A DNA stretch of 64,000 nucleotides from Pseudogymnoascus verrucosus (Eukaryota), in NCBI GenBank assembly GCA_001662655.1, contig KV460238.1, one strand, 5' to 3'. Positions 1 to 27,371 of the stretch are shown here, piece after piece. A model generated the notes under the pieces. The model searched no databases. It was not told the DNA's origin and was given only the letters and a program-made list of their open reading frames with translations. A program made the translations under genes and the position numbers. How positions within the stretch are numbered: the stretch's first letter is position 1; each line of letters starts with the position of its first letter.

Positions 1-919
1 CCCCCCCCCCCCCCGACCCCCCGCCTCCCACGACTATCTTCGTTGTGCGCCCGCCCCCCAAAAATACCCAAATATCTCACCTCTGAGTTACCTTTGGTTA
101 CTCTACTCAAAGTTACTTTACTCTCGAATTTACTTACTTGAAGTTACTCGAGTCACTTAAGTTTACTAAACTTACTTAACTTGCCTTACCTCACCAACCT
201 CCAAATACCCATACATACACATACACACCAAAACACCAAAACTCCTACTCGCACTACATCACACCTTACTTCACGTGTTCAATCCCCACCAACACATACC
301 AACCTCCAAAAATACAAAATACTACGCCAAAACCTGCACCTGCAGTCCAGCCTAACCTGGGCAAGCAACTTGCAAGCCCTACCGACCTCAGCCTGCATAT
401 GCCGGGGCTGCCCTCGACCACGGTGTACACCCTACCACATCGCTTGCCAACGCATCCAGCATATCAGATTAAAGTACTCGGCCTCGCCTTTAGTCTCCGC
501 CCAGCCACTCTGCGCCAAACAAAGACCGACCGCGTCGCCTGAAATCCCACCCACGCACGCAACCCATTGCCTTATCGTCATATCTCCATCGACATCATCG
601 TTCGTCCAATTTCGCAGCTTCAGCTCGCCAGTATAATCTTTCAATACCCGCGACGCTCTTTGCACAATCTCCGCGCCGAACACGCGACGGGACGACGGGG
701 CGACTGACTCGAGTCCGCCAACACGTCACTTCCCACGTTTCTCACATCCCCCACCACTAACCACCCACGAACCAACCGCGCGCCGAGAGTGAGTGAGAGC
801 GAGAGAGCTCCGACGACGAGCTACACGACGCATCCCGACGCGCCGAATCCGACGCGCGACCGCCGCCAGGCAACCCAGCTCGCCGCCGCGAACAATCACC
901 TAGACACGCCGTAGTCCCA

Positions 920-2017
920 ATGATGGAGTACGCGCAATACCAACAACAGCCGCAAGGCCACCACCCTCAGAGCCAGGGCCACCTACAGAACCCATATCCC
1001 AACTCCGGGCAGCTACCGGGGCCAGGCGCACCCCTCACGTCGCCGACAAACCAGCCGCTGCACCAACAACAACACGCGCTCCACGGCCAGACATCCCCCA
1101 TCCTGCCGTCGCAACAGCAAGGCGCGCAGGGCCAGGGCCACCCCGTGCACCAGCAGATGTACAACCAACCCCCCTACGGCGTCCAACCGCAGGGCATGCA
1201 CTACGGGATGCCCGGCGGCATCTCGACACAAGCCGCCGCCATGGCAGCCACCGCCGCCGCCTCAGGCCAAGGCTACCCATTCCTATCATCTGACCCGAGT
1301 CTCCCCAACACCTCGCCGCGCATGGGCGGCCTCAACCTCAAGAAAGACGCTGCGCGCCGCCCGCGCTCGCCACACCAACTCACAAACCAACTCGGCCACC
1401 CCCGCCGCGTAAGCACGCAACTCGGCTCACCCGGCGCCCCAGCACAACCACTCAACCACGTCGCGCGCCCCGCGGCGCCACCGATGCCCGCACAAGCACC
1501 TCAGCACCCGCAGTCGCCCGAGCTCGTCGCGGGTGCAGGAGCAGAAGAGAGTCCGCTCTACGTCAACGCGAAGCAATTCCACCGCATCCTGAAACGGCGC
1601 GTCGCGCGCCAGCGCCTCGAGGAAGCACTCCGCCTCACCTCAAAGGGGAGGAAACCGTATCTCCACGAGTCGCGACATAACCACGCGATGCGCCGGCCGC
1701 GCGGTCCCGGTGGGCGCTTCCTGACCGCCGACGAGGTGGCGGAGATTGAGCGCAAGCAGGCGGAGGGCGAAGAGGGGGGCGCGGAGGCGGTGCCTGCTAC
1801 GGCGACGCCGGCGAAGCAGGGGAGCGCGTCGACGCAGGGGAGTGCAGGCGCGCCGGGGGCGGGAGTGGCGCCGGGTGCGAATGCGAGTGCGCCAATGTCC
1901 GGGGGGAAGAGGAAGGCGGAGGATGAGGAGGAGGCGACGCCGAGTAAACGCGTTAAGGCGAGGGCGGCGAGCGAGGATGATGATGAGGAGGAGGAGGATG
2001 TGGATGAGGATGGCTAG
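920..2017 (+). CDS. hapB: CCAAT-binding complex subunit HapB/Hap2 (NF-YA)
   Basis: Single 365 aa ORF with a Q/P-rich N-terminus and the NF-YA core [26 protein letters not shown]...[25 protein letters not shown], then a basic KRK/KRVK NLS-like segment and an acidic tail. Confidence 0.95.
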
Positions 2018-8766: not shown

Positions 8767-11700
8767 CTAGATCTCATCCCAAACCACAAACGGCAACGCG
8801 CAATATGCAACACCCTCTACTAGCTTGCCAGTGCAATTCGCGATCTCCGTCCCGAGCGAGGGGTTGACTTCCAGAAAGATCGTGATTGTGGTCCCGCTCG
8901 TAAATGCAATAGTGCTGCACGTGTCCCCCGAGCCAGCCACTCGCCACGTCCCGCAGTTCAGGGTCGTGTTGGCTGCGACGGTCGCCCCGACTGGCGGGGG
9001 GCTGATGAAATGGCTATACCCCGGCGCGTCAGCTGGGATCGTCGTGTCGCCTGGCACGACGGTAGAATTTGCGGCAAACTCGCCGTTCTGCGGCGCTAGG
9101 CAGATGACGTGCCCGAAGGCGGCGTCACTAGCTGTGTGTAAGTTCGTGCAGTCGCGGTCGACCCAGCGATTGTACATTTGTACGTTGCCGATGACGGAGA
9201 CCAGTGTGGTCGCCGTGACATTATATTCGATCGAGGAGCAGGTGTCGTCTGGCTTGATAGTCCAAGTCATCGCACAAGCAGGCGGCAGGCAGAGCGAGGT
9301 GCCTGCCGCGATAGAGGAGCAGTCGTATATCGAGTCGGGATTCCCGGCGTAGAGAGCTGCGGAGGCGAGGCTGTGCGATTCCGCGATCGAGTCGCAGGTG
9401 TCGCCCTCGGCGGTGACAATCATCTTGTTGGTTTGACAGTACGTCGATGGGTCGGGGAGGTCGAGAGGTGAGTCGGGGATCGTGGTGCTTCCGCCGACTG
9501 GGCATTGCTCGAGCGTGTATTCGAGTTGCGACTTGATGAAGGTGTCGTAGCTAGAGAACTGCGAGCGCTGCATTATGGCAAAATGTTCTATCCAACAGTA
9601 GGAGCACATCTCTTTTGGCGGCATGTCTTGGATTTTGGAAACTTGGGTGAAGCCATCGATAACTTCGCCGCAGTACTTGCCCGTTATGGGATCCAAAAGA
9701 CAGGTCTGATTCCACCCACTCCAGATACGACCGCCGAGGAGAGTAGGCAGAGCATTGTTAACGCGATAGCCCGCACAAGCGATCGAAACACTATCGAACC
9801 AGCTCTTCAAGCTCTTCCCGCACGAAGCAGCGCAGACAGTATTGGTATCGTTGGCGGTTCCGAGCCAGCTTTGAATTCCGGGGGACTGATACGTCTCAGT
9901 ACGGTTATCACACGCGATAACTTCGGTCAGCGCACTCCTGCAACTATCAGGCAAGACAGGCCCGTATAAGCTGTCGAGCAGGGCATTCGACCACACGCGG
10001 TACCCGGGGAACTCGCGTTCACCGACAATATCAGTTGATCCCTGGAGCCAGGCCAAGACAGAGGAGAGAAACCCATTAACGTTATCCTTGGCGTATGTAG
10101 GTGTACTCCCTAGGGGCGAGACCATCTCCTTGATGGCCTTGGTGCATAAATTATAAAGCCAGATGTCGCTACTCTGCTGGATCTCGAGCCCGCGCTCCTG
10201 GCAGTCGTTGGTGTCCACGCAGGCTTGGCTGTAGTCATCGAACCAGCTGTAGAGTCCAGCGCCAAGGACGTAGATGGACGCCGAGTTGATGATGCGGACC
10301 GCCCAGGAGACCGCACAGCGAGCCGAGCCGCCTACGCAGCTAGTGAAGGTTGGGTCGTTGGGGAATTGTCCTGATGTGAAGGGGGCTGGTGCGTGAGGGA
10401 TTGGCTGGAAGTAAGGCGATTCCGTCTGAATCATGGCCATGACCACATCCTTTGCGTTGGAGAGTTGGTACTGGTACAGCACATTATGCTCGACCGAAGT
10501 TCCCCATAACCAAGCCTTATCGCTCTCAACAAGTAGACCTCGACCAGAGTAAATATCAATCTGATCTAGCGTCTTCGAATCCAAATCATGATCTGCCGTC
10601 CAGAGCCAGACATTCTCAAGATAGGCTGTCGACTTAGGCTTTAGGTGCATTAGGAGAGATGCAGCCTTACAGCGGGAATTGATAATCCCGGACTGCTTGG
10701 GGCAGTTCTTAACTGAGAGATCGCTACCTACCGCGCCGCCGATTCGGACATGGGTGTCTGTGCGAGAAGAACGGTTAGAATCAAATATTATAATTACCGG
10801 GTAAACACTGAGGTGTTGTATATAACTTACCCCACATGCCGGCAGCCCCAAGGCTTGATTCAGCCACGTTCCATTCAATGGCGACGGCACCTGCTGTGGC
10901 GCCCTTGACGGTGACCATCATACTCGTGATCTCAGCGATGCCGACATCCCCCGCCTTGCCCACTTGCACGACGGCTCTGGGTTGGGTTTCATCGGCGAAC
11001 TGATTACCGTAGAAGTTAAGTTAGCGACTAGACTTTTTCTTGAAAGCCCAACATTGCGTTCCAAAGAGCAGATAGCTTCTACTGACCATATCACCAGTTC
11101 CCATAATCTGCGACCAAACCTGTCCAATGATGCGGGATCCAACTGGCACACGGAGAGTATCCGTCACAATGTACACCCCATACGGAATGAAAACCACAGA
11201 CGAAGTATTCGCCGCGCCCTCAAGGATCGAATTGAGAATCTTCGTATCATCCGTCACCCCATCCCCCTTAGCCCCCAACGTCCTCGCATTCATAACCTTA
11301 CCAGCCGCCACATCAAGATACCCCGGCCGTCTCCTCGTAAACAAGTTCGGCGCCATCTTATCATACGCATCACCTAGCAGCGCCGTGCTCCGCTTCATGA
11401 CGGGGATACGCACCCCGTTAGCGAAGGAAGTTTTCCCGTCGCCGCTCGTTGCGGTGGTCACTAGCCCGAAACCCCAGTTATCAACTACGACCTGGTCTCC
11501 GCCGGCGAGGAGGACTTTGCCGGTTGTATCGTCGGTGATGGCTGTGACTGTGTTGAAGAAACCGACGTTCTGTAGCAGGAACGAGGTCGAGTTGTCGGCG
11601 AATAGCGTTGTCACGATGCCTTTAGGGGTGTTGGCGATGATGGAGTCGACTAGAATGAGAGATCCGACGCTTTGCCCAGTGGACTGCGGACCGCCGGCCT

Positions 11701-13436
11701 ATGAAAAGGTATGTTAGATTTTGGGGTCGTGGGAAATGGGGACTGGGGGTCGACTTACGCCGCCGATAATGAGGAGGCCGGTGCCGCAGCTCTCAATGAC
11801 AAAATCTTGCATCGTCCATGCCCAGTCCCAGTGCACTTGTAGGGCAATGACTGAGCTGACGAAGACGAGATGGCTGGTCGTGAACTGCTGGTTGCCAAAG
11901 TATGCCCTTTGAGCCGTCAGTAACTGCAATCCGTGCATATAGTCGGCTGAAAGGATGGCTCCTTACCCAAAATGCCCACCGACAAACGTGAGGTCTGCTA
12001 GAAATCCTCCGGAACCGTTCTCCATATATATTCCCTTGATATGCTACGTTAGCACTCTGTTATACGACTCAGGGGAAGTAAAAAAACGAGAAATGAGAAA
12101 TGAGAAATGAGAAAAGATATTGAAAGCTTACCTGTTGATTGTTGCCTGGCACATCGGACTCGTATAGCATGTAAAACTCGATGTTCTCAAGCGACGTCGC
12201 CTGCGCGACTTGCCAATGGATGCCACACAGGTAGCTCCACGGAGAAGCAGGCCTGATGTCGATTTTGAAATTTCGGACGCTGCGTAAGAAGTTTGCCGTG
12301 TTGAGATACCTAGAGGGCCACAGTTAAATCCCTTCCAGCTTGCGGCTTGCATACACTTAATGAAATCACATACCACTCCACATTATCGCTAACATAAACG
12401 TCGCTGGTGATTACTCCTTGGCCTACGAAACTCGACGCAGCGAGCAAGGTTGGAACCTGCACGGCCTAGACGGAAATACCTCCATTAGTGCCCTTCGAAC
12501 TTTGGTTCGGGGTTAAGTTGATTAGGACTCACATCACCGAGGAACTCCGTGTTGAAATATTGGATAATAGGACTGCTAACAAGGTACGTCCCAGGTGGGA
12601 AGTACACAACAGCTGGGTAGATAGTGCTTGACCCGCAGTCAGGACCACATCTCCCGCCTGAAGATACGGCGAGGTTAATAGCCTTCGTGTCATCTGTGAC
12701 GCCGTCGCCTTTGGCACCAAAATCTTTCACATTACGCCAGACCTATCACTCTATGATTAGCTCCAATCCAAAATAGAGTCAATGTTATCACTCGCGTGAG
12801 TAGAGGAAGCCCTACCTTATACCCAGCCGGTGCAAAAGGACTCGACCCAGACGATCCCATGTCCACCATCCACCATGCACTAGCCCGCTTGGATTTTGCT
12901 TCATGATCATCGCCATAGACTGAGAGTCGCCCCTCTGGTGTCTTATGCGATGGCGGAACGTTCGTGTCGTTCGTCTTGTGCGCATACTTCTTCTTCATTG
13001 TCGCAGCTACTGCGGAGTGATTCCCCTTAGCGACCTGCCGCGTCGCCTCAGCCATGATTCTCGCAGCGTCAGCGAGCTCGGGCGAGATGGAGTAGCTTTT
13101 GGCGGCTGTCTCAGTGGTACTGTTGGCCTGATTTTGGCGCTTTTGGGTAGTGCCATTGTTGACGATGGACGAGGGTTGTAGAGCAGCTGCCAGCTTAGGA
13201 GTTATCTTGCCAGATTGGAACTTGTACTTGTTGAAGTGCGGATTCTCGACGCGGGCTTTGTTAACACGGCTGAGCGCTGAGAGGCCCTCCTCTACCAATG
13301 CCACTGCGGCGGAGGTCTTGCTGCCATCGCGAGCGTGGTTACCGTGGAGGTGAGTTCCAGAGATCAGTGTGGCATGGAAGATGAGGAGGAGTATTGTGAG
13401 GACTACACTCCTCAATGGGGGATCGAAGCGCCGCAT
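8767..13436 (-). CDS. Secreted GH55 exo-beta-1,3-glucanase fused to a Cys-rich domain and three C-terminal LysM domains (multi-exon)
   Basis: Signal peptide MRRFDPPLRSVVLTILLLIFHATLISG and a pro-region with KR sites. Spliced GH55 motifs: VWRNVKDFGAKGDGVTDDTKAIN, NFLRSVRNFKID, GIHWQVAQATSLENIEF, GIYMENGSGGF, GNQQFT, a second GAKGDGVTDDT repeat, WLWTADHDLD, EHNVLYQYQ and QTESPYFQP. LysM repeats: GDTCDSIAESH..NP..C..LCLP, DDTCSSIE..N..DCTNL..ICL and GDTCSTIA..NPSLG..C. Confidence 0.9.
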
Positions 13437-13917
13437 AGTGATAAATACGACAGATAGAGACCTCACAAAGAAGGCTCTTGCTAGAGAGCTTGAAGATAGA
13501 TAGAAATATGCAACGCGGACATAGCTAAAGGGGTTATAACCTATACAAGCCATAGCATAGCCAACTTTCCTCCGCCTCCTTATGAGAGCCATAGATACAT
13601 ATCGGGTCTACGAATGGAGTGATATTCGTAACTGCCGTTTTCCCTACCGGCGTCCCGACGTTCGCCGTCAGCACCACATGCCAGCGCCGTAGCCGGGCTC
13701 TCGGCTTCTGCAAGGCAGGCCTATAGAATTAACTCTTGACATGATTAATGTAAAAAATACGAGCGCGAAAATATCTAGTGCACCGCAACGGAAGATTACC
13801 AATCTATGAAAAGGTCCAATTAATATAAATTATATGAGTAAACGCGACCCGTGCCGTAAGCATCGGAAACGCTAGCACCTTCGGCGCCAGCGACTATGCA
13901 AATTGGACCTCTGATAC

Positions 13918-14364
13918 CTTTACCAGCCTCGTAAGGCCAGCCAATCGCAAAATTTACTATTTTATATCCAATCAATTTACTGGGTTAGCCGTAATGTCAT
14001 ATGGTTAATGTCATATAGTTAAGAATAATCCTAAGAAGTTCTCGAAGGATTCTGTCGGCCGGCACTACAAGAGTCTGACCCGCCAAGGCACCCGTTGTCA
14101 ACCCGGTTTGAGCCTAGCAGTGCCAATTAGAAACAAGCTTCTTTACCCATCAGCCTCACTAAGCCGGCCAATCGTAAAATGAACATTTTATATCCAATCA
14201 ATTTACCAGGGTTAACCATAATGTCATATAATTAAGATAGAGCTATGCAAGAAGTTCTCAAAGGGTTCTATCCGCCTGCACTACATTAGTCTGACCCGCC
14301 AAGGCACCGGTTGTCAACCCCGTTTGAGGTTAGCGGTGCCAATTAGGAATAAGCTTCCTTACCA
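13918..14364. repeat. Diverged tandem duplication of ~220 bp in the shared GH55/GH18 promoter
   Basis: Shared blocks in both copies: ttttatatccaatcaatttac, aatgtcatata.ttaaga, aagaagttctc, gtctgacccgccaaggcacc.gttgtcaaccc and gtgccaattag.aa.aagcttc.ttacc. Confidence 0.9.
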
Positions 14365-14532
14365 CATTTAGACATATCAAAGTAGCCAAACCGCTAGTGG
14401 TCTATTAGTACCCACCGTTATGTCAACGAAGGATCAACGTGGATCAACGCAGGATCGGCGCCCTGACAGATTCAGTAGCGGATCGGCCCACGCTTGATTC
14501 AGGTCGACGTTTACTTAGCCACATATTGATTA

Positions 14533-14627
14533 GACATATGTTCCGGCCGTGAGATTTGCCCGCTCATAAGCTGACCGGCCAGCTCACGAGGGAGAATAAC
14601 TCACGGCTGGGCCGGAACACATATGTC
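14533..14627. repeat. Imperfect inverted repeat (hairpin) of ~95 bp
   Basis: Left arm gacatatgttccggccgtgag...agctg pairs with right arm cagct...ctcacggc...ggccggaacacatatgtc around a 6 nt loop (accggc). Confidence 0.8.
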
Positions 14628-15104
14628 AAGTCTGCGACGATCGGATCTGTAAGCAGTTTACACCATGAGTGTCTGAACAGTAAGCCGGCTTATTCTTGAC
14701 AGTGTCAAGGACGGTAAGCAACGTGATAACCGCGGTTCGGCAGTTCTTCTAATGCAACCCTTATACAAGTCCAAACATTGTTATGAGGCGTCATATAGGG
14801 ATGTGGATGCTCCGTGGGCTACTCACTTAGTCTCGGTCAAGGGTTGAACATACTACAGTCTCTCTTCATGACACATGATCCTTCGGAATAGACGGAAATG
14901 TAAGGCGCTTATTACAGAATTGTAAGTGATTAGCAATGGCTAATTGTACATTCTCTCCGAGCCGAGATCCCTTCGGGGTTTGCGAAGCAGGAGGACCTTA
15001 GACTCGCTTTTTCAACATCTCTCACCTCATCCCCACCATTCACCTCTCTCCATGATTCAGACCTCAGCGACCTGTCTCTTTGATTTCTAGACAAACTTCG
15101 CACA

Positions 15105-18100
15105 ATGGTGGCATCAAATCGCCTCCTACCGTATGCTCTCTGGGCGCTTCTGATATGCCTCCTAGGTCTCAGCAATGCCCAGGACGCCCCAGAGTGCAGC
15201 GCATCACTACCATGTACAGCGGGATGTTGCAGCAAATTTGGATTCTGCGGTTTAGGACCGGACTGTAAGAAGTTGCCCAAGCACGAGAGGAGCCAACCTC
15301 TTACCCCAGAGCAAAAGTTAACCTTGTATTACAGACTGCAGCAAGGATGTATGCGTCAATAACTGCGACCGCAAAGCTGATTGCGACCCGGGAGGTTATG
15401 GCAAAGACTACGTGCTCAAGACCACATGCCCCCTAAATGTTAGGACCGCTATCTATTCGTAACATTTCTGTCCTAACTGACATGTCTATATAGGTCTGCT
15501 GCTCTAAATATGGCTTCTGCGGAACAACAAAAGAGTTCTGTGGCACGAAAACCGTGAGGCGGCCAAGCTGTGACATTGACCAGAAAGGCAAGTTCAAGCG
15601 TGTTGTGGGATACTATGAGAGTTGGGCCACAGGGCGGCCGTGCAATCGCATCTACCCAGAGCAGATCCCTTCAGACATCTACTCCCATATCAACTTCGCC
15701 TTTGCTAGCATCGACCCCACCACTTTCGAGCTTGTCCCCGCCGATGTAGCAGATATTGATCTGTATAAGCGCGTGGCCAATCTCAAAGCCAAGGATATAA
15801 ACCTCAAGGTTCTCATCTCTGTGGGCGGCTGGACCTTCAACGACCCAGGTCCCACGGCCACGACTTTCTCTGATATTGCAAGAGATGAGACGGCTCAGAG
15901 GAAGTTCATCGACTCGGTGCTCAGATTCTTGCAGACGTATAACTTTGACGGCATCGACATAGACTGGGAGTATCCTGAAGCTGAGGATCGGAGCGGGCGC
16001 GGCGAGGATTTCGCCAACTTCCCTAAGTTTATGAAAAATATAAAGCAGACTCTCAAGAGCTATGAGGTCAGCGTCACACTCCCGGCGTCTTTCTGTAAGT
16101 TACGATGGCTCTTTCTTCAGCCTTAGTCTCTAGTCCCATCCCGATTTCTAGTTGACTCCTCAATCGAAACGTCTCTAAAACTCGCTATAGGGTACCTTCA
16201 ACACTTCGACCTTAAGAATCTCGCACCACACGTCGACTTCTTCAACATTTTGACGTACGACTTCCACGGCGTGTGGGACAAGCTGAACAAATGGGTCGGC
16301 CCGTATCTCAACTCTCACACCAACCTAACGGAAATCAAAGACGGTTTGGATCTCCTCTGGCGCAACGGCATCGACCACGACAAGGTGTCACTAGGCCTCG
16401 CCTTTTACGGCCGCGGATTTATAGCCAGCAGTCCCACTTGCCTCGAACCGGGTTGCACGTTCGAGTCCGGGACTGACGCCCAGTCGTGCAGCGCTGAGGT
16501 CGGTGTGCTGCTGAACTCAGAGATCGACGGCCTAGTCGCTGAGCAGAACTTAAAGCCCGTACTAAACAAGGACGCCGCCGTCAAAATCCTGACATGGGGT
16601 GGTAACAACTGGCTTACCTATGATGACGAGGAGACGCTGCAGATGAAGGCAGATTTTGCACGCAGCGAGTGCCTTGGCGGAGTCATGGTATGGGCAATCT
16701 CACATGATACGCAGGACATGAAGTACAGCAATGCTCTGTCGGGTGTGGCCCCAAGGCTGTTTAATTCCAAACTTTATCGGGGCAGCGTAGGTAACGGAGA
16801 TAATGGATATGTTACGGATGAAACGGACTATCAACAGTGTAGGTGGACAGGTTGCAACGAGGACTGCCCAGGAGACTGGATCCGTATGATGAGGAAGGAT
16901 GACGGCGCTAGGCGTGACGAGTTCATGGTCAATGGAGCGGGGTGTGGTGGATATGGTGAACAGTATGTCTACGTCTAGTGTCTCCCTGATCTAAGCACTT
17001 CGTCTGTGCTAACTCCTTCAAAGCAAGCTATGTTGCCCGCCAAGTGCCAACGTGCCCACATGCGGGTGGTACTCACATAGGAACGGCAATTGTGATAGTA
17101 AGTACCGATTCGCTCCATTCCCTATAATTCACAAACGCTCCTCCCACTAACTTCCCCGTAGATGGCGAATCCTGCCCAGCCGGCACAAAGGAAATCGGAA
17201 GCAACAGTGAATACTGTCACCCTAGCGGATTCTACTCGCCGATCAGGTCCTACCAAGCTGCATGCTGCACTACCGACACCGACAGTATGGTGTTATATTC
17301 CCAGTGCGACTGGTCCGCGAAAGTATCCCTCGGAAACTGGCCGGATTGTTCCAAGTCGTCGTGCAGTAATGATGTGGTCGCTTACTCTGGTGATGGCAGC
17401 GGCGAAGCCACCTGCTGGGGAGCCTGGTACGAGCAGCTAGGAGACTCACAAAAGAACAAGTACTGCTGTGATCAGCCTGATGATAACAAGAAATGGTCGG
17501 ACTGCGAGTGGCAGGGTAAAACAGACGTGAGTGATAATATACGGCCCCGTTTCTTTATTCTAAAACGCTACCATTTTGTAGTTCGATGCTTTAGCAGGGA
17601 AGATGCTAACTATAGAATGTTATTAGATCATTGACGAAGACACGGGGTTGCACATTTGCACGGGGGAGTGCTCGGGGGGCCTTATTATGGTGGCCGCGCA
17701 GCAGGCGGGATGCTCGGGTGGGGGGGCTGAAGTGAGATGCTGCAAGCCGAGCTACAAATCATTACAGAAGAGGTATCAGAACAGCGAAGATGATGAGTTC
17801 GCATACTATCTAAAACGTGAGTTAAGCTACTTTTTTTTCAACGTGACATATTGTGTGGTTCTGCCTAGTTGCTAACATGTTTCTGTTTGTAGGTTACATG
17901 GAGAATCCATTCTGCTCGGCAAATATCTTCAACTCTAACGGACTGCGAAAGCGTATTGACTCACCAGTATCCGACCTAGCTGTCACAGCTAGCAATGGTG
18001 AGTTAGGACCTTAGATGCTTTCAACAGTCGAAATCGGAGTTAACAGCAGATGCAATCTCTTAGGCACCGTGATTAAGCGTCAATTTAGCCCAGATATTGT

Positions 18101-19643
18101 GGCCCAGGACTACGCGGAGAAAATGGCCGAGGAACTCTTTATTGGAACGCCGCGACAATCTACCATAGATATATGGGATAACACAGTGGTTCCCTACTTT
18201 GATAACCTCTCCTATGCTAACCTCCATGACTACCAGATGGGAGCCGGACGTAACGAATTCCTGCAGTATGGAAGTACGCAATGGCCCTGGTATATCACCT
18301 GCAATATGGCTACCCTACAAATCGCAATGTCGGGCAATGGAGGTGACTCGGACCCGGGCTCAGGCTCCTGCACGACAACCTGCGTGTGTGTTAGGGCCGA
18401 CTGCTGCAGCGAGGATGACAGTGAATGCATCAACTCTAGCGAAGATGGGTATGACACCGTTTCCAAAAGGGCCGCAAAAAACTACGATTGGACGGCCTTC
18501 GATTATAGGACAGGTGCTAGACAGTCTCTTCCTTGGAGAGCACCAGATGTATGCCTTACTTCACTCTATTGACGTAACCTCTTAGAGACCAACAGCTAAC
18601 TAATCTAATTAGTATCCTTCACCAAGCAATTTGAACAAGATTAAGGAGCGCAGCAAATTCGCCGAATCGTACACATACGATCCGAACTGCGCTAGCTTCC
18701 GCCCTGTCGTGGTCGATTCTTTACAGGACGGCAAAATTGTTGATGGATTCGAAAGCAAGTCCGCCCTAAATATGACCATACTTGTTTCTGGCCCTAACTC
18801 TGTTTATTAGACGATCACATATTTGAGCGCAAGATGCTGCCTGTCTGGGGCGACAACGCGCTCCAGGGATACCTCGCAGGCAATGAAGACGCCAGCCATC
18901 GGGTACCGTACGATTTCTTCACAATATCCTTGCAACAAATCGACGCATCAGGCGCCACTATCCAAGACCGTATGATGATTGCGCTTGGGAGCAACACGAA
19001 CCGCGACGTGATGACGTTACTAGTTAAGGACTTAAACCTCGTAAAAGAGAGGGTAAGGGGTTCCTAGGACCTAATGTTTTGACGTTGAAACGACGAATGT
19101 TTAGCTGACAGCTTCTAGTTATGGACTACCACAGAATCCCCTATCGGCGACACAATGATGGAAAATCTAGTCTATGGAACAAGCACAATCACGGCATGCC
19201 CAAATCAGGGAATGGACAAAATCAGAAAAGTAAGATATCCCCTAGCAAGGCAGACCTATAGAAACAAATCGACTCACTATCTTCTCACAACACAGGTCCT
19301 CATCGTCTACCGATGGCACATGGAGCGAGAACCGCATAGACGCCTTAAAAATGTCATGAATAACCTTCGAGCTCTCCTCCACGAAGCAGACCTACACTAC
19401 GAGAGAACACACAACGGCCAGAAATCTTACGCAGTAGAGCACTTTGACGCCTGGACCAAGACGACATTTGAGGTAATGAGGGATAGAATCAAGGCTTGGG
19501 GCCAGAATTGGCTAGACGAACTGAACATACCTGCCATCACTAATAGTTATGTGGGTAATAGCATTCGACAGAACCTAGTTATTGCCTACGGCAATATCCC
19601 TGACATTGACACAACGGACTTTTACGTCCCAGATTATTCATAG
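15105..19643 (+). CDS. Subgroup C (killer-toxin-like, class V) GH18 chitinase: signal peptide, CBM18/hevein modules, GH18, Cys-rich region and a C-terminal putative HNH-like domain (about 13 exons)
   Basis: Signal peptide MVASNRLLPYALWALLICLLGLSNA; hevein-like CCSKFGFCGLGPDYC and CPLNVCCSKYGFCG; GH18 motifs RVVGYYESW, SVGGW, intact catalytic FDGIDIDWEYP, TYDFHG and LGGVMVWAIS. Canonical introns plus one GC-AG intron (18755-18810) keep the frame open to the TAG at 19643. Confidence 0.88.
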
Positions 19644-19835
19644 TTAGATGGCAGAGGAGCTAGGAGACGTTGATCCAGTGGGTTCGGTCTTAGGGGACCT
19701 AACTGCCAGGACAAAAAGACGGTCAGATGTTGTAATCTATCCTTAAAGATGTCACTGTATCTGCAGCAAAATGATACTATCCCCTATTATTGATAGAAGT
19801 GCGAGGTGTTGCGGAAATCATCGCTGAAGTCCATA

Positions 19836-20120
19836 CCCCTGGTTCTTGTGCCGCCTAGAAGCTCGAGGGGCTGTACTGTGATGTACATAGCTGAGAATCG
19901 ATGCTAGAAATTTGAGCTAATGGTATTTCTCTCTTTACCTGTATTTCCAAGTAATTAATGTGACAATACCAGTCCCTTGCTCTTGTGCTGCCCAAAAGGC
20001 CGCAGAGGGACTGTACTGTGCTATACATAGCCGAGGATCGATGCTAGCAATTCAAGCTAATAGTATTTCTCTATTTATCTCCATTTTTAAGTAATTAATG
20101 TGATATTAATAGCCCTTGGT
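19836..20120. repeat. 140 bp tandem duplication between the convergent chitinase and unknown gene
   Basis: ctgtactgtg occurs at 19871 and 20011. Shared blocks atcgatgctag, agctaat.gtatttctct and aagtaattaatgtga recur with a 140 bp period. Confidence 0.9.
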
Positions 20121-20277
20121 TAATATTTTAATTATAGTTGCCGTAATCACCGCTGCCATCCACAGTCCTTCTTCCGACTTTTGGGCGGCACGAGTAGATG
20201 GCCAAAGCTCTACCTTCTATTGCTGTCTAAGACATTCTCTTATAAAAAGGTCCTCTCATGTCGCTGTTCATATAGAC

Positions 20278-21267
20278 TTAACTCGGGGAATACCACAACT
20301 TCCCAGATCCATGGGGGATCTCCGTGCGTTCAAAGGTGTATAACCACTTCCCACTTGCCCTAGTCCTCTCAAACCATGCATCCGGGATGTCTTTAGTACA
20401 CAGCTTCATCCATCCATCATAGTTGTCGCCATCCCCGCCGCCCTGAAATCTTTTTACGGCCTGCGAGTCAACCAGCCAGACATACGAGTGGCAATAGAGA
20501 ACGTCCCGAGCCTACACGAACACAGTTTAGCATTCCCACATGATGAATAGGAGGGATGGCTTACACGTCTTTCCTCGCGAGATACTAGTTCTAACGACGG
20601 TGTCTCCTTGGGAAGTGTGGCGAGCGAGCGAAGCGAGCCCTCGTCGATGACTAGGAAGTCGCAGAACCTAGCGCTATCTTGGATGTTGAATTCGGCATTG
20701 CTGTCGACATCACCAACGGCATTGCAAAGCCAAGAATCAAAGGCGTTAGTGAGCGCCTTGATATCATCTTGGCTAGCGTTGTCAAGGTCAGGGACGTTTA
20801 TCTTCTCCAAGTCCACGTCAACTTCCTCAAGTATGAAGCGGCGCCCAAGCTCTTCATTGACTGAGCTGTCGCTTTTGTTCGTAGCCAGACGGTTAAGGTG
20901 AACAAAGTACTGCGTCACCCAGCGCCTTAGATTTTCTAACGCAATCGGCCATAGTGTGTTAGACTCATCTGAGTATGTTGTGCGTAGTACTAGTTTTGTC
21001 AGATTATGCCAGATCATATCGAATTAATCAAGGTTGTATAATACATAACGAATAAGTGAATGTGATGGCGTATTTACCTGTGTAGCCCCACGATCCTTCA
21101 GCGTATCTGCCTGAGTTTTTATATCTGCACATGGAGTCGTTCATCATACTGAACCACCACATGGCCTGTGTATCCTTATCACGATTGAACATTGGTAAAG
21201 TATGCGCAGATAATTCGCGGGATGGTTTGGGAAACGTTTCTTTGATAGACATTATGGATGGATGCAC
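20278..21267 (-). CDS. Uncharacterised cytosolic fungal protein (~282 aa, WGYTVLRTTY...GWM type), 3 exons; candidate immunity protein
   Basis: Exons 21267-21078, 20989-20565 and 20511-20278 splice in frame through GT-AG introns: ...SWGYTVLRTTYSDESNTLW...ARFCDFLVIDEGSLRSL...YVWLVDS...YDGWMKL...WYSPS*. No signal peptide. Confidence 0.75.
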
Positions 21268-23180: not shown

Positions 23181-26100
23181 CTAATACAAATCCTCATCCT
23201 CCTCCGCCCTCCCAAACCCACCAACAGCCACTCCCTCATCGGTATCCTCCTCCATCCTCGCCTTTCCCTTCCCCTTCCCCTTCCCACTACTCCTCGGCCT
23301 CCCATTCACCAACTTCTTCTCCACCACTCCATTAGCCTTCTTCCCATCCGCACCCCCGTTCGCCTCCGGAACAGCCTCAAACTGCGCCCGCACCTTCGTA
23401 TAATGCTCCAACTCCTTCGCACTGACACTGGGAATCAGCTCCTGCTGCGCAGCCATGAAATCCTCTTCTGTGACCACCACAGCCACATCTGCTGGCTTTG
23501 CGTAGTGGTCGAAGAAGTACGCCGTCGTGATTGTGTCGTCGGGCGCGCGCTGAGAGTTGATGGCTTTGACTTGTGCGTCTACAGCGGATGCTTGGCGTGT
23601 TACGGCTTTGAGCATGGCGTCGGAGCAGAGGGCGTAGAAATCGGCACCAGTGTAGGTGAAGGGAAGGCGGGTGGCGATGCGTGGGAGTGAGAGGGTGGGT
23701 GACATGGTGAATCTGGGATAGTGTCAGTATGACCCGGTTCAAAAGGATAAAAGGGGCTGGGAAGGGGGATACGTACTTCCTGGTCAACGCCTCCATGATC
23801 GTTGCCTGCTTGTCGTGTGTATCGCTCACACCAAGGTAGAGCATCTTATCGAAGCGACCCGGGCGGAGCAGCGCTGCATCCAGCAGATCGGGACGATTCG
23901 TCGCGCCGATGACGAATACGCCACCGCCGCCATCATCGCCATCGCTCATTCCATCCAGCTCTGCGAGCAGCTGGGACACGATACGATCCATGACACCTCC
24001 ACTATCACCCTGGTTACCACGCTTCGGCGCGACGGAGTCGAGCTCATCGAAGAAGACAACGCAGGGCCTCGCGTCGCGCGCCCGCTGGAACACACGGCGC
24101 ACGTTCGCCTCAGACTCTCCAATGTACATGTTGAGCAGCTCTGGGCCCTTGACGGAGAAGAAGTTGAGCGCGAACTCAGTCGCGATGGCCTTTGCCAACA
24201 GCGTCTTACCCGTACCGGGTGGACCATAGAACAGGATACCAGAGCGCTTCTTCATGCCCTTAGCGAACAGCTCAGGGCGCTCGAGCGGCAGCTGGATGGT
24301 CTCCATGACAGCATCCTTGACGTGCGCGAGACCACCGACATCGTCCCACGTGACGTTGGGGATCTTCGGCGCACCGATAGCGTCGGCGAAGTTCTGACGT
24401 GCGTGCTCAACAGCGTGGTTGAAATCGGCGCTGGTGAGGCTGCGCGATGGGCCACCAGATAGCTGCACGTCGCGCACGGAGACGGGGAGGGCGGCCGAGG
24501 CGGCCGAGGTAGCGAGGCTTTCGAGACGAGTGTGGCGTGCCACCAGGGCACGGTCCACGACGTCAACTAGGTCACCAGCAACGAGAGCGGCGGTTTTGAC
24601 GGCTACGCCACCAAGGTCTACGTCGGTTGAGAGGGAGACACCGCGGTCATCGACGATGCTGTGGAGGATGCTCTCACGCTCGCCTTCATCGGGTGCATGC
24701 ATATCGAGCTCGTGAGTGAACAGGCTGCGGATTCCGTCCGGTACCTTGTCCACTTCCGTTGTGGTCGCGATGATGACGCGGGAGTCGGCGAGGACGTCCT
24801 TCAAAGCTGCAATCATCCGCTCAGCCGCCAGGGCCTCGATGTGGCGGACTACGAGTGCCGTGTTCTCCGCGCCGCAGGTCAGGGCACGATCGGCACGCGC
24901 CTTAAGGAAACCTTCTGTCTTAACATCGCCGCCGGCTCCACCTTCGCTGACTATGTCGTACGCGTCGATGGTGAAGCTGTGAAGACCGATATCGGAACAG
25001 GCTCTGCTAGCAAGCGTTGCTTTGCCAATGTTCCTCTGGGTTGACACAAGCAGGATGGCTAGCGGTGGGAGCTTTAGGTGGATAGACCTTGCGCTTGTCG
25101 CCGCTGCGACCAGTTCTCGCAGTTGGCGGCGGAGAGGGGTGATGTGCTGAGGCTGAGGCTCTGGCATAGTCGGGGCCAAAGCATCAGAACTAGATTTAGA
25201 GACCGCTCGCAGCTTGAAGTAGTGCTCCCAAGGGCTGTCCTTGGTCGGTGGCAAGCGGCTCTTTTCCGTCCCAGCTGCAGCCATTTGCGTCTGGGAGAAA
25301 TCAATAGCTGCTACGCCGCCCCAGATATCCTCGTCCTCAGGGTCCTCAACCTCTTCGCGTCGTGCGTGCGTGATATGGCTAACCTTGAACCAAATAACCC
25401 CAGTAGATTTCGTCAAACTGGTCCCCTGCTGATCGGGGTTGACTAACATGTCGTCTGTTATCGCGTCCTCTTTACCCGATGAAGTCTGGAATAATGTCCT
25501 TCCTAATGCCTCATCGATTGGAATTCCGACGATATCTCCAGTCTTGACAACCCTTGCTCTCTGAGTGAAGTGTCGCTTGAGGCCGCTAATAGCAGCAGTC
25601 TGGAGAGTCTTCTCAGTAGCCAAAGGTGTAGCAATCTTTGCGAAAGTCACCTCGCGGGCAACGGGTGGCAGCGAAGTGTTGGTAATCTTCGGTAGTGAAG
25701 CCTTCCCTACCGTCTGGGTCTGCTTCAGAGTCGACAAGCGCACATATGGGGTGCTATCTAGATTGGCTAACAGTATTGGTGAAAGATAGACTGTCGGGCT
25801 CGTGGGTTTCGACACCTGTGAGTCGAAGAATGACATCTTCTTTGACCCTCTGCTAGACGGTATCTTGGTGACGGCCCTGTGCGAGTACCCTTCTGGCAAA
25901 CTGTAAACCTTGACAGGTCGCCAGATGAAGTCCTCATCCTGCGCCTGTCCAAAGCTACCCAGTGTCCACAGACCCATGCCTTGCTCAGGCGGCTCAGAGG
26001 CAGTCTCCAGGCGGACCCAATCGCCTGAGAAGCAGCCGATCTTAGTGAGCGAGTTTACGTCAACGTAGATGCGTGCTTCCTCGTCATCGTCGGCTGGAGG

Positions 26101-27371
26101 AGTAGGGCGGAGCAGCTCTTCGGGAAGAGGGCTCATTAGACCCTGCGCCTTGAAGAGTCTGCCCCGTTGGCCACCAGCTCGCGCTGTTGTCGCAGTGTAA
26201 TTTGAAAACACGGATCCGGGAGTCGCAATGCCATTGGTTCTACGGCTAGGGCCGAGAGGAGTAGCCATGCCACTTATATTCGAGGAGGGCAGCATTGGAG
26301 CTTGTAAAGAAATCATCTCATCCATAGAATCGTCCGACAGATTGTCCGTATCGTCAAGGTCTTGATCTTCGGCCTCAGTCTCTGTCATTGAGTCGTCTTC
26401 AGGAGCCGCATCGGTTTTGTAGCGGTCTTCGGCGGCCGAAAAGAACTGCTCATTAGAGGTATCCTCATCTACCTCAGTGACCTGGTCTAGAACGCGCCTC
26501 AGAGACATATTCGACGCCTTCCTGACAGTCCTCGTGTGGTGCCCCGTCTGCGTGACAATGATGCGCGTATTAGGCGACAATATGCCCTGTGCGACTGGCT
26601 CACACAGAGTCACCTTTGCTGGTGGGGGCAAAACATGCGTGATAGAATGCGGCGCCAGAGGAAGCGGGAAAAAGTCACCTGCATGCACAACCTTCAATGA
26701 CGACAGGGCTTCTCGGATTGCCGAGCTGAGTCGGTCTTCCGGCACAGCGCTCTTTCCATTTGCATGGTTGCCGTTGGCCAGCGGGTGCTCGCCATGGAAC
26801 GTTCCCTCACCATTTTCAAGTCGCTTGGCCAGGCCAGCCTCGAGAGTGACGAACACAGTGTCCAATGTCAGGGGCAACACATCAAGTGCCCAGATCTCGA
26901 TTCCGCTACGGCTGTGACTGAGCAGTTTCGACGGAGTCGTGCGCTGGAGCTCTTCGGCAAAGCCTTGTAGGGCGACAGAGCTGGGCGCGAACTGTATAGT
27001 GTTGGTCGCGAGGGCGCTCGACGGCCTCACGGGCACGACAGTCCAGCTAATTTCGTCCACGGAATTGAAGGGGGCTTTCGGGGATATCGCAATGTGTGCA
27101 AGCTCGGGTATGCCGACGGGTCCGTCGCCGTTTGTTTCGTCGTCTTCATTGCACTGTTAGCCGACCGAATTACTCGTATTTCATGCAGTCACTTACGTTG
27201 GTCTTGGGCGGGAAAGAGCTCGTTATAGAGGTCTTCTGACACAATCCCCACATCGCCTCGGACATGCTCATCCAGCACCAGTCTCGCGAATACCGCAGAC
27301 TTGTCCTGGCGACGTCTTCTCTTGCGCTTGCGCCTGTTAGCTATCGGGGTATGCTGTATAACAGCCGACAT
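23181..27371 (-). CDS. PEX6: Peroxisomal AAA+ ATPase Pex6 (3 exons)
   Basis: D2 domain GAPKIPNVTWDDVGGL...GMKKRSGILFYGPPGTGKTLLAKAIATEF...FFDELDSVAPKRGNQGDSGGVMDRIVSQLLAELDGMS...ATNRPDLLD and a degenerate D1 (QRNIGKAT). Last exon reads YTGADFYALCSDAMLKA...PSVSAKELEHY. First exon starts MSAVIQHTP. Confidence 0.95.

Follow-up and report, generated by a model that had tools for sequence, protein, structure and literature searches.

Among known systems, those closest to the gene examined here include the group C ("killer toxin-like") chitinases of filamentous fungi and the zymocin alpha/beta precursor. The available parts of the preprint by Heneghan, Salzberg & Wolfe (bioRxiv 10.1101/2024.10.25.620242) tie zymocin-like killing to filamentous-fungal group C chitinases through neighboring gamma-toxin genes, and do so for the C-II subgroup only: C-II chitinases carry LysM and are linked to neighboring gamma-toxin and immunity genes, the subgroup is the sister of the killer-plasmid chitinases, and a near-terminal Cys, the link between beta and gamma, is kept by 29 of 31 gamma-paired chitinases. 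In the same excerpts and in those of PMC13556262, a fused effector domain, Hce2, occurs on chitinases. On the nuclease side, partial texts report secreted fungal DUF1524 proteins (PMC6453484), place DUF1524/GmrSD_C (PF07510) in His-Me finger group 3 (Jablonska et al., 2017, PMC5714182), and list ascomycetes among the carriers of DH-NNK, a clade of HNH toxins (Zhang et al., 2011, PMC3113570; Zhang et al., 2012, PMC3482391). The literature covered, which extended to those parts of the preprint outside its supplementary Tables S1–S6, yielded no description of a chitinase with a fused nuclease. Here, we analyzed a 64,000-nucleotide stretch of contig KV460238.1 from Pseudogymnoascus verrucosus (GCA_001662655.1; hereafter the window), which contains a gene for a predicted secreted chitinase with a long C-terminal tail. 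At the level of sequence, comparison with orthologs confirmed this tail as a conserved two-part module, flanked by putative Kex2 sites, that belongs to a rare lineage of group C (C-I-like) chitinases; that it acts as a nuclease is a tentative suggestion, which we weigh below.

Reading positions 14000–21000 together with stop-to-stop open reading frames (ORFs) gave a single plus-strand gene at 15105–19643, which we assign to a secreted chitinase precursor from Pfam matches on the ORF pieces, colinearity in tblastn alignments, and an ATG at 15105 followed by the signal-peptide-like MVASNRLLPYALWALLICLLGLSNA. The predicted product consists of a signal peptide, two CBM18 chitin-binding modules, a GH18 domain, a Cys-rich middle region, and the C-terminal tail. 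Pfam detected Chitin_bind_1 and GH18 on the chitinase ORF pieces, with GH18 split across two ORFs (E = 3.7e-37 and 9.6e-26), and this active-looking GH18 domain bears DGIDIDWEYP, which corresponds to the DxxDxDxE motif. A predicted signal peptide, CBM18, and GH18 with DxxDxDxE are the features that mark the group C killer toxin-like chitinases, and all three appear in this gene. Because the chitinases P0003 and P0005 (described below) aligned colinearly with the window from 15105 to 19631 in tblastn comparisons, the tail is confirmed, as judged from these alignments, to be the 3′ end of the predicted chitinase gene.

The original prediction held that five segments downstream of a Lys-Arg site splice into a Cys-poor domain of ~306 residues and that a DH motif follows directly after a GC-AG intron. 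When 18471–18548, 18613–18754, 18811–19052, 19119–19229, and 19296–19643 (all plus strand) were joined by script, the resulting 921 nucleotides were in frame and encoded 306 residues, just two of which are Cys, followed by a TAG stop codon (19641–19643); the joined tail was identical to P0003 at 153 of 317 positions (E = 2e-94). Exon 1 (18471–18548) contributes 26 residues. Exon 2 (18613–18754), which aligns to P0005 and P0006, encodes YPSPSNL..TYDPNCASF..GFE and the first base of an Asn codon. Exon 3 (18811–19052; its product is P0002) continues from N-DHIFER to LGSNTNRDVMTLLVKDLNLVKER and is the candidate His-Me core, with 61% identity to P0003 over 100% of its length. Exon 4 (19119–19229) adds 37 residues, including the second conserved Cys, and exon 5 (19296–19643; P0001) encodes a predicted helical C-terminal subdomain, recognizable in relatives, with the pattern YA.xH[FW]DAW before the stop codon. 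The tail thus has two parts, an N-terminal one of ~155 residues, in which D-H, N, N, and K are invariant, and a helical C-terminal one of ~150 residues.

Introns 1 (18549–18612), 3 (19053–19118), and 4 (19230–19295) are of the GT-AG type. Intron 2 (18755–18810) is a GC-AG intron with the donor GCAAGT and a branch-like CTAAC ahead of the acceptor; it splits the Asn codon as A/AC and places the codons for DH (18813–18818) directly after this Asn. An alternative GT donor at 18759, read by eye from the sequence, would reach a stop codon. All tail splice sites were placed by ortholog alignment alone. Across the GC-AG junction, FENDHIFER in the window corresponds to EEFENDHLFER in P0003, GFDNDHFFER in P0005, and GYNNDHLFER in P0006, such that the junction reproduces NDH[LF]FER of three of three orthologs. 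The predicted junction is therefore upheld, and the ortholog models likewise back the splice pattern where different splicing or termination ahead of the DH exon had been considered. Intron 4 is a special case. It was read through in P0007, a fragment 100% identical to the window, and in the P0003 gene model, and was spliced out in the P0005 model; the sole gap in the alignment of the window tail to P0003, of 21 residues, falls at its position. Because this intron is 66 nucleotides long, in frame, free of stop codons, and read through in these two cases, it may be retained in some transcripts to give a possible isoform longer by 22 residues.

Relatives of the tail proved to be few. A word-based search with exon 3 (80 residues) returned two proteins among 49 candidates, namely P0003, a chitinase of Thyridium curvatum (1146 residues, 61% identity, full coverage), and a 143-residue fragment. 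When the P0003 tail served as query in a region search, which covered proteins of 630–2006 residues through shared 5-residue words, three of 3011 candidates were returned, all Sordariomycete chitinases: P0003 itself, P0005 from Monosporascus (1168 residues, 50%), and P0006 from Colletotrichum tropicale (890 residues), whose gene model ends after the N-terminal half of the tail. With the window, these make four full-length carriers of the tail. Identity between genera was 48–60% across the whole 300 residues, with long invariant blocks and two conserved Cys. An exhaustive phmmer search of 1.84 billion representatives with exon 5 gave 14 rows at E ≤ 1e-3. Of the nine fungal-type relatives among them, seven were short fragments, and the remaining two were P0005 and P0007, the latter being the window's own. 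The other five rows (P0014, P0015, and P0017–P0019) were judged spurious by eye and dropped, being long repeat proteins that matched through WG.N..GQ.NVP-like repeats. No further homolog appeared among 24 candidates in a longer-length search with exon 5, no relative was found in two metagenome scans (308 and 178 pattern matches) or a prokaryote genome scan (82 pattern matches), and tblastn against plasmids reached a best E of 4. No Pfam, NCBIfam, PADLOC, or PDB sequence matched the tail. The tail family is rare and has no Pfam name.

A profile search of 401 Pseudomonadota genomes gave seven matches at E ≤ 0.1, the best at 7.2e-4 per genome, a level at which ~0.3 matches are expected by chance. 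The best match and one other sit on helicase-like ORFs of ~1170–1230 residues, at query positions 101–140. In these ORFs (L129 and L131, Pseudomonadota), PFDLYARLLNRRDARGLTVRQRFMTRLG resembles the best-conserved stretch of the tail, VPYDFFT.SLQQ.DASG.T.Q.RMM.ALG (window 18900–19000); this resemblance is probably due to chance.

Immediately before the tail, the plus strand encodes a dibasic KR site at 18465–18470 (VSKR followed by AAKNYDW). The site is kept in three of four sequences, as QKR before AARDYDW in P0005 and EKR before ASEVYDW in P0006; the P0003 gene model is without that segment. A first conserved dibasic site, RKR, lies upstream at 17946–17954 (plus strand) and is a possible Kex2 site. 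It is found as RKR or QKR in three of three sequences (GLRKRIDS in the window, PLRKRNES at position 706 of P0003, and PVQKRIDS at position 731 of P0005). The dibasic sites adjoin a Gly/Ser/Asp-rich stretch, and the gene thus appears to have what is expected of a Kex2-processed precursor, a conserved dibasic site in a predicted exposed linker of a secreted protein. The RKR site is ~170 codons upstream of KR, and cuts at both would free a conserved middle piece of ~150 residues (FSPDIVAQDYAEKMAEELFIGTPRQSTIDIWDN...). Both Cys of the tail are conserved, and the last one lies ~120 residues before the end. The tail is acidic, with an isoelectric point of 5.8, and hydrophilic, with a grand average of hydropathy (GRAVY) of −0.56.

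The original prediction also proposed that the tail contains an HNH/His-Me nuclease-like domain and, as part of this, that DHxxE and Asn residues should be conserved. An Asp-His dyad at 18813–18818, the candidate general base, was invariant, with NDH present in four of four sequences. Two Asn residues and a Lys (N63, N75, and K78 in P0002 numbering) were invariant in five of five sequences. N63 (18999–19001), the candidate structural Asn, is shared by the window, P0003, P0004, P0005, P0006, and P0010, and N75 and K78 form the sequence N-L-V-K (19035–19046), which would provide a helix-borne metal ligand; all of these features are on the plus strand. The spacing is 61 residues from His to Asn and 12 from N63 to N75. 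In one extra fragment, P0010, His replaces N75 at the helix position, and an N-to-H swap is usual at the metal ligand of HNH/HNN enzymes. Conservation of the residues therefore stood, and the family assignment itself found no sequence or profile match to a member family in Pfam, with DUF1524 and Endonuclea_NS_2 scoring at control level.

Two other candidate sites were rejected. YA[LV]EH, in the helical half, was considered as a His-Me core; its Glu is unconserved in P0011–P0013 and P0016, no Asn pattern follows it, and it corresponds to the start of a long helix in the AlphaFold model. RHYERTH, an HEPN-like R-x5-H motif, has Leu instead of Arg in the window and is missing from several fragments. 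A match to AbiJ_NTD4 (E = 0.082) fell short of any threshold.

The explanation that we rank first, at a probability well under even, is that Kex2 releases the tail as an effector module, which may be a divergent His-Me nuclease. According to this model, the tail would be a separate secreted module of a group C chitinase precursor; Kex2-type cleavage in the secretory pathway would free it or loosen it from the chitinase, and the chitinase and chitin-binding part would direct the tail to the wall of a chitin-bearing target. In this view, the N-terminal part would be a divergent, metal-dependent nuclease of a His-Me (DUF1524- or DH-NNK-like) type, in which the His at 18816–18818 would act as general base, the Asn at 18999–19001 would brace the hairpin, and the Asn at 19035–19037 would hold the metal. 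The toxin would then be encoded in cis and not by a neighboring gamma-toxin gene.

The ortholog-backed gene model, the retained dibasic sites, and the invariant D-H, N, N, and K count in favor of this explanation, as does the context, in which LysM, a near-terminal Cys, and a nearby small secreted ORF (in a crude scan of 7–30 kb) were not seen. The strand-1 block of DUF1524 also picks NDH as its top site in all four sequences, and GmrSD_C and AHH recur among the ESM Atlas clusters for the whole tail. Several resemblances point toward this assignment. As in DUF1524/GmrSD_C, the tail has [DE]H plus hydrophobic residues and then ..LG(N)..[LM]TLL-x4-N..K in the same order, as seen by eye and in a local hhalign alignment, whose top match pairs QQRMMHALGS..VMTLLVKDMN of the tail with QDRCVYQLGN-ITLLKNSVN of DUF1524 at the same TLL-x4-N spacing; this match is suggestive by eye only. 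In the ESM Atlas, the one independent pointer toward a nuclease, each of the ten top-ranked named clusters found with the N-terminal half had a family or clan in common with the best of them, GmrSD_C, an outcome that a third of shuffled proteins also reach (ten of ten). The scores among the matches listed were 0.83 and 0.82 for GmrSD_C/DUF1524, 0.81 for GH-E, 0.78 for AHH, and 0.78 for GmrSD_C with HNH_4; a third of shuffled proteins reach 0.8. We take GmrSD_C/DUF1524, GH-E, AHH, and HNH_4 to belong to one His-Me clan. GmrSD_C/DUF1524 supplies the nearest named ESM clusters for the N-terminal half, and DUF1524 has fungal and secreted members in the portions of the literature cited above. As in the DH-NNK/Endonuclea_NS_2 polymorphic-toxin nucleases, the tail would be a C-terminal cassette on a secreted carrier, and DH with Asn/Asn/Lys is the motif that defines DH-NNK in the available text of those papers; DH-NNK appears to correspond to PF13930. 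By eye, N-L-x-K-x-x-x-W of the tail resembles N-L-N-K-x-x-W of PF13930 members.

The following results weigh against a nuclease. Pfam hmmscan gave nothing at E ≤ 1 with the exons or at E ≤ 5 with the whole orthologs, and the tail also drew blanks in NCBIfam, PADLOC, and PDB sequences. For direct comparison, a DUF1524 set was assembled from 52 positive genomes among 301 Pseudomonadota (30 domains, with 29 used after the near-duplicate of L085, L086, was dropped) and an Endonuclea_NS_2 set from 15 positive genomes among 401 (16 matches, with 14 used after removal of L124, which has an internal stop, and L128, a weak second match). In hhalign comparisons, the N-terminal half scored 10.8 against DUF1524 (Prob 0.13%) vs 9.8 for the reversed query, and 12.0 against the 14 Endonuclea_NS_2 (PF13930) sequences vs 14.4 for the reversed query, no better than reversed. 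A hidden Markov model (HMM) of the 29 DUF1524 members gave −1.5 to 0.7 bits on the four tails, scores that 16–167 of 300 shuffles equaled, and its best local match was YA[LV]EH in the helical half and not NDH; the Pfam gathering threshold for DUF1524/GmrSD_C (PF07510) is 23 bits, and the tail falls under it. With the DUF1524 strand-1 block, NDH ranked first in all four whole proteins at −6.3 to +0.5 bits, and five true members scored 28.7–34.8 bits; over the DUF1524 blocks, the scores were −10 to +0.5 bits vs 18–35 bits in five true members. Unlike DUF1524, the tail has six extra residues between LG and MTLL, Glu instead of Pro after the His, an H-to-N spacing of 61 vs about 28 to 58 in sampled members (by eye), and no significant profile match; unlike DH-NNK, it has a single Asn beside the Lys. 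The ESM scores of 0.78–0.83, with 97–125 shared features, lie in the range compatible with chance.

An AlphaFold2 model from a 12-row alignment had a mean predicted local distance difference test score (pLDDT) of 50.0, with the N-terminal half below 50 and the C-terminal half helical at 60–74, and the N-terminal half alone (6 rows) reached a mean of 35.0; around the motif, these low-confidence models are mostly helices. The His-to-Asn spacing is 61 residues, and nowhere is the domain better conserved than in between, an odd property for a hairpin insert. The acidity of the tail and the lack of a recognized immunity-like neighbor are further points on this side. In these comparisons and low-confidence models, no His-Me family gained statistical or structural support. 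The nuclease assignment remains coherent and unrefuted, given the conservation of D-H, N, N, and K and a language-model lead in the same direction, and we hold it as a tentative proposal that is more likely wrong than right. Slightly less likely is its extension to a single-polypeptide killer toxin, in which a chitinase of the C-I type would bear, behind a Kex2 site, a divergent His-Me nuclease of its own, as a fungal analogue of bacterial polymorphic toxins.

Next in our ranking, and rather unlikely, is that the tail is the positional counterpart of zymocin beta, a non-catalytic piece that is cut at KR and helps binding, uptake, or assembly, with no warhead of its own. The layout of the gene matches the zymocin alpha/beta precursor, as given in the available parts of the preprint (bioRxiv 10.1101/2024.10.25.620242), as well as the group C chitinases in being secreted, with chitin-binding modules, GH18, a dibasic site, and a long C-terminal extension of ~300 residues behind it. 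Such a role would also fit the finding that the modeled half of the tail is a plain helical bundle, whose best folds (residues 120–301 only) were syntaxin/spectrin-like bundles with Z of 7.5 or less, rated a common arrangement (best match 5m4y_A; root-mean-square deviation 3.9, 141 aligned residues), and that no catalytic family was detected in Pfam, NCBIfam, PADLOC, or PDB sequences. Other comparisons argue against such a role. The region search with the P0003 tail gave its three Sordariomycete chitinases and no yeast killer-plasmid protein, and no similarity to yeast proteins emerged, within the limit of shared 5-residue words. Unlike zymocin-type heteromeric toxins, the tail is without the near-terminal Cys kept by most gamma-paired chitinases in the preprint excerpts, and no gamma-like gene was seen nearby in a crude scan of 7–30 kb. 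Unlike the C-II subgroup, described there as the sister of the plasmid chitinases, no LysM occurs in P0003, P0005, or the window ORF pieces, and the architecture is thus C-I-like and not of the C-II type. The tail is hydrophilic as well. Zymocin beta is hydrophobic.

Less probable again is that the tail is some other effector or enzyme that happens to share a few polar residues with nucleases, such as a hydrolase that acts on the wall, a module that binds carbohydrate, or a toxin of another type. This would account for the position of the best-conserved stretch, VP..FF..SLQQ.DASG.T.Q.RMM.ALGS, between the proposed catalytic residues rather than at them, and for the whole-tail ESM Atlas search, in which clusters of unnamed Ascomycota proteins led at 0.95 and 0.93, followed at 0.92 by a bacterial cluster with the automatic name 'Chitin-binding protein', all above GmrSD_C (0.83) and AHH (0.80). 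Fusion of a chitinase to Hce2, an effector that is not a nuclease, is known from the preprint and from the accessible portion of PMC13556262, and the C-II enzymes of this kind (e.g., A. nidulans ChiC2-2) combine a chitinase with a fused cytotoxic effector domain, as the window gene might; unlike them, the window gene has no detected Hce2, and its Cys-poor tail sits at the C-terminus behind a KR site. Because Pfam, NCBIfam, PADLOC, and PDB sequences gave no family at all, nothing specific favors another effector either, and no non-nuclease family is among the named ESM matches listed. The strain variants bear on this possibility too. The contigs compared, from four runs in all, are unspliced DNA with no joints; against those of three other runs, the tail showed 13 exonic variants (8 nonsynonymous, 5 synonymous) and 5 intronic ones, an excess that, in these small numbers, may suggest fast evolution of the kind seen in effectors. 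The high share of nonsynonymous changes would equally suit a tail with no function of its own after secretion, either a pro-region for folding or sorting that is cut off at KR or a weakly constrained lineage-specific appendage, as would the scarcity of relatives, with four full-length carriers and nine related rows (including P0007) among the 1.84 billion representatives and none in the metagenome and prokaryote genome scans. The 48–60% identity over 300 residues between genera, the invariant blocks, and the two conserved Cys exceed what is expected of a disposable pro-region, and we consider this explanation very unlikely.

If the tail is a nuclease, one gene would supply wall binding, wall opening, and a nucleic-acid-cutting warhead, and the tail would found a nuclease family that as yet has no name. 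Chitinases would then deliver toxins more broadly, and in a more modular way, than the three-gene cluster model suggests; antifungal effects of those group C chitinases that lack a gamma-toxin partner might be explained in this way, and a small unnamed protein family would become open to the yeast induction assay already applied to gamma toxins. Should it have no nuclease function, the tail is still a conserved, putatively Kex2-flanked module that marks a rare chitinase lineage.

In one low-depth strain contig, the otherwise invariant Ser of LGS in the tail is changed to Arg. Around the chitinase gene, no small secreted ORF was seen in the crude scan of 7–30 kb, which spliced genes could escape, and neither that scan nor Pfam scans of the neighbors, which gave no significant match, revealed a gamma-like or immunity-like gene. 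The divergent neighbor at 8767–13607 (minus strand) is apparently one large secreted gene, with the signal-like MRRFDPPLRSVVLTILLLIF in its N-terminal ORF, a pectate-lyase-like domain (PF12708) at 11021–11698, and LysM in 8767–10917. It probably encodes another secreted wall-active enzyme, and a wall-degrading enzyme pair with the chitinase is likely. Short direct repeats flank the chitinase gene in non-coding DNA, at 14033–14147/14249–14363 (87%) and 19865–19975/20005–20115 (82%). Farther away, the window contains two ordinary housekeeping genes, one for a PEX6-like AAA ATPase (23377–27156, minus strand) and one ORF for an NF-YA (CBFB_NFYA) transcription factor (797–2017, plus strand).

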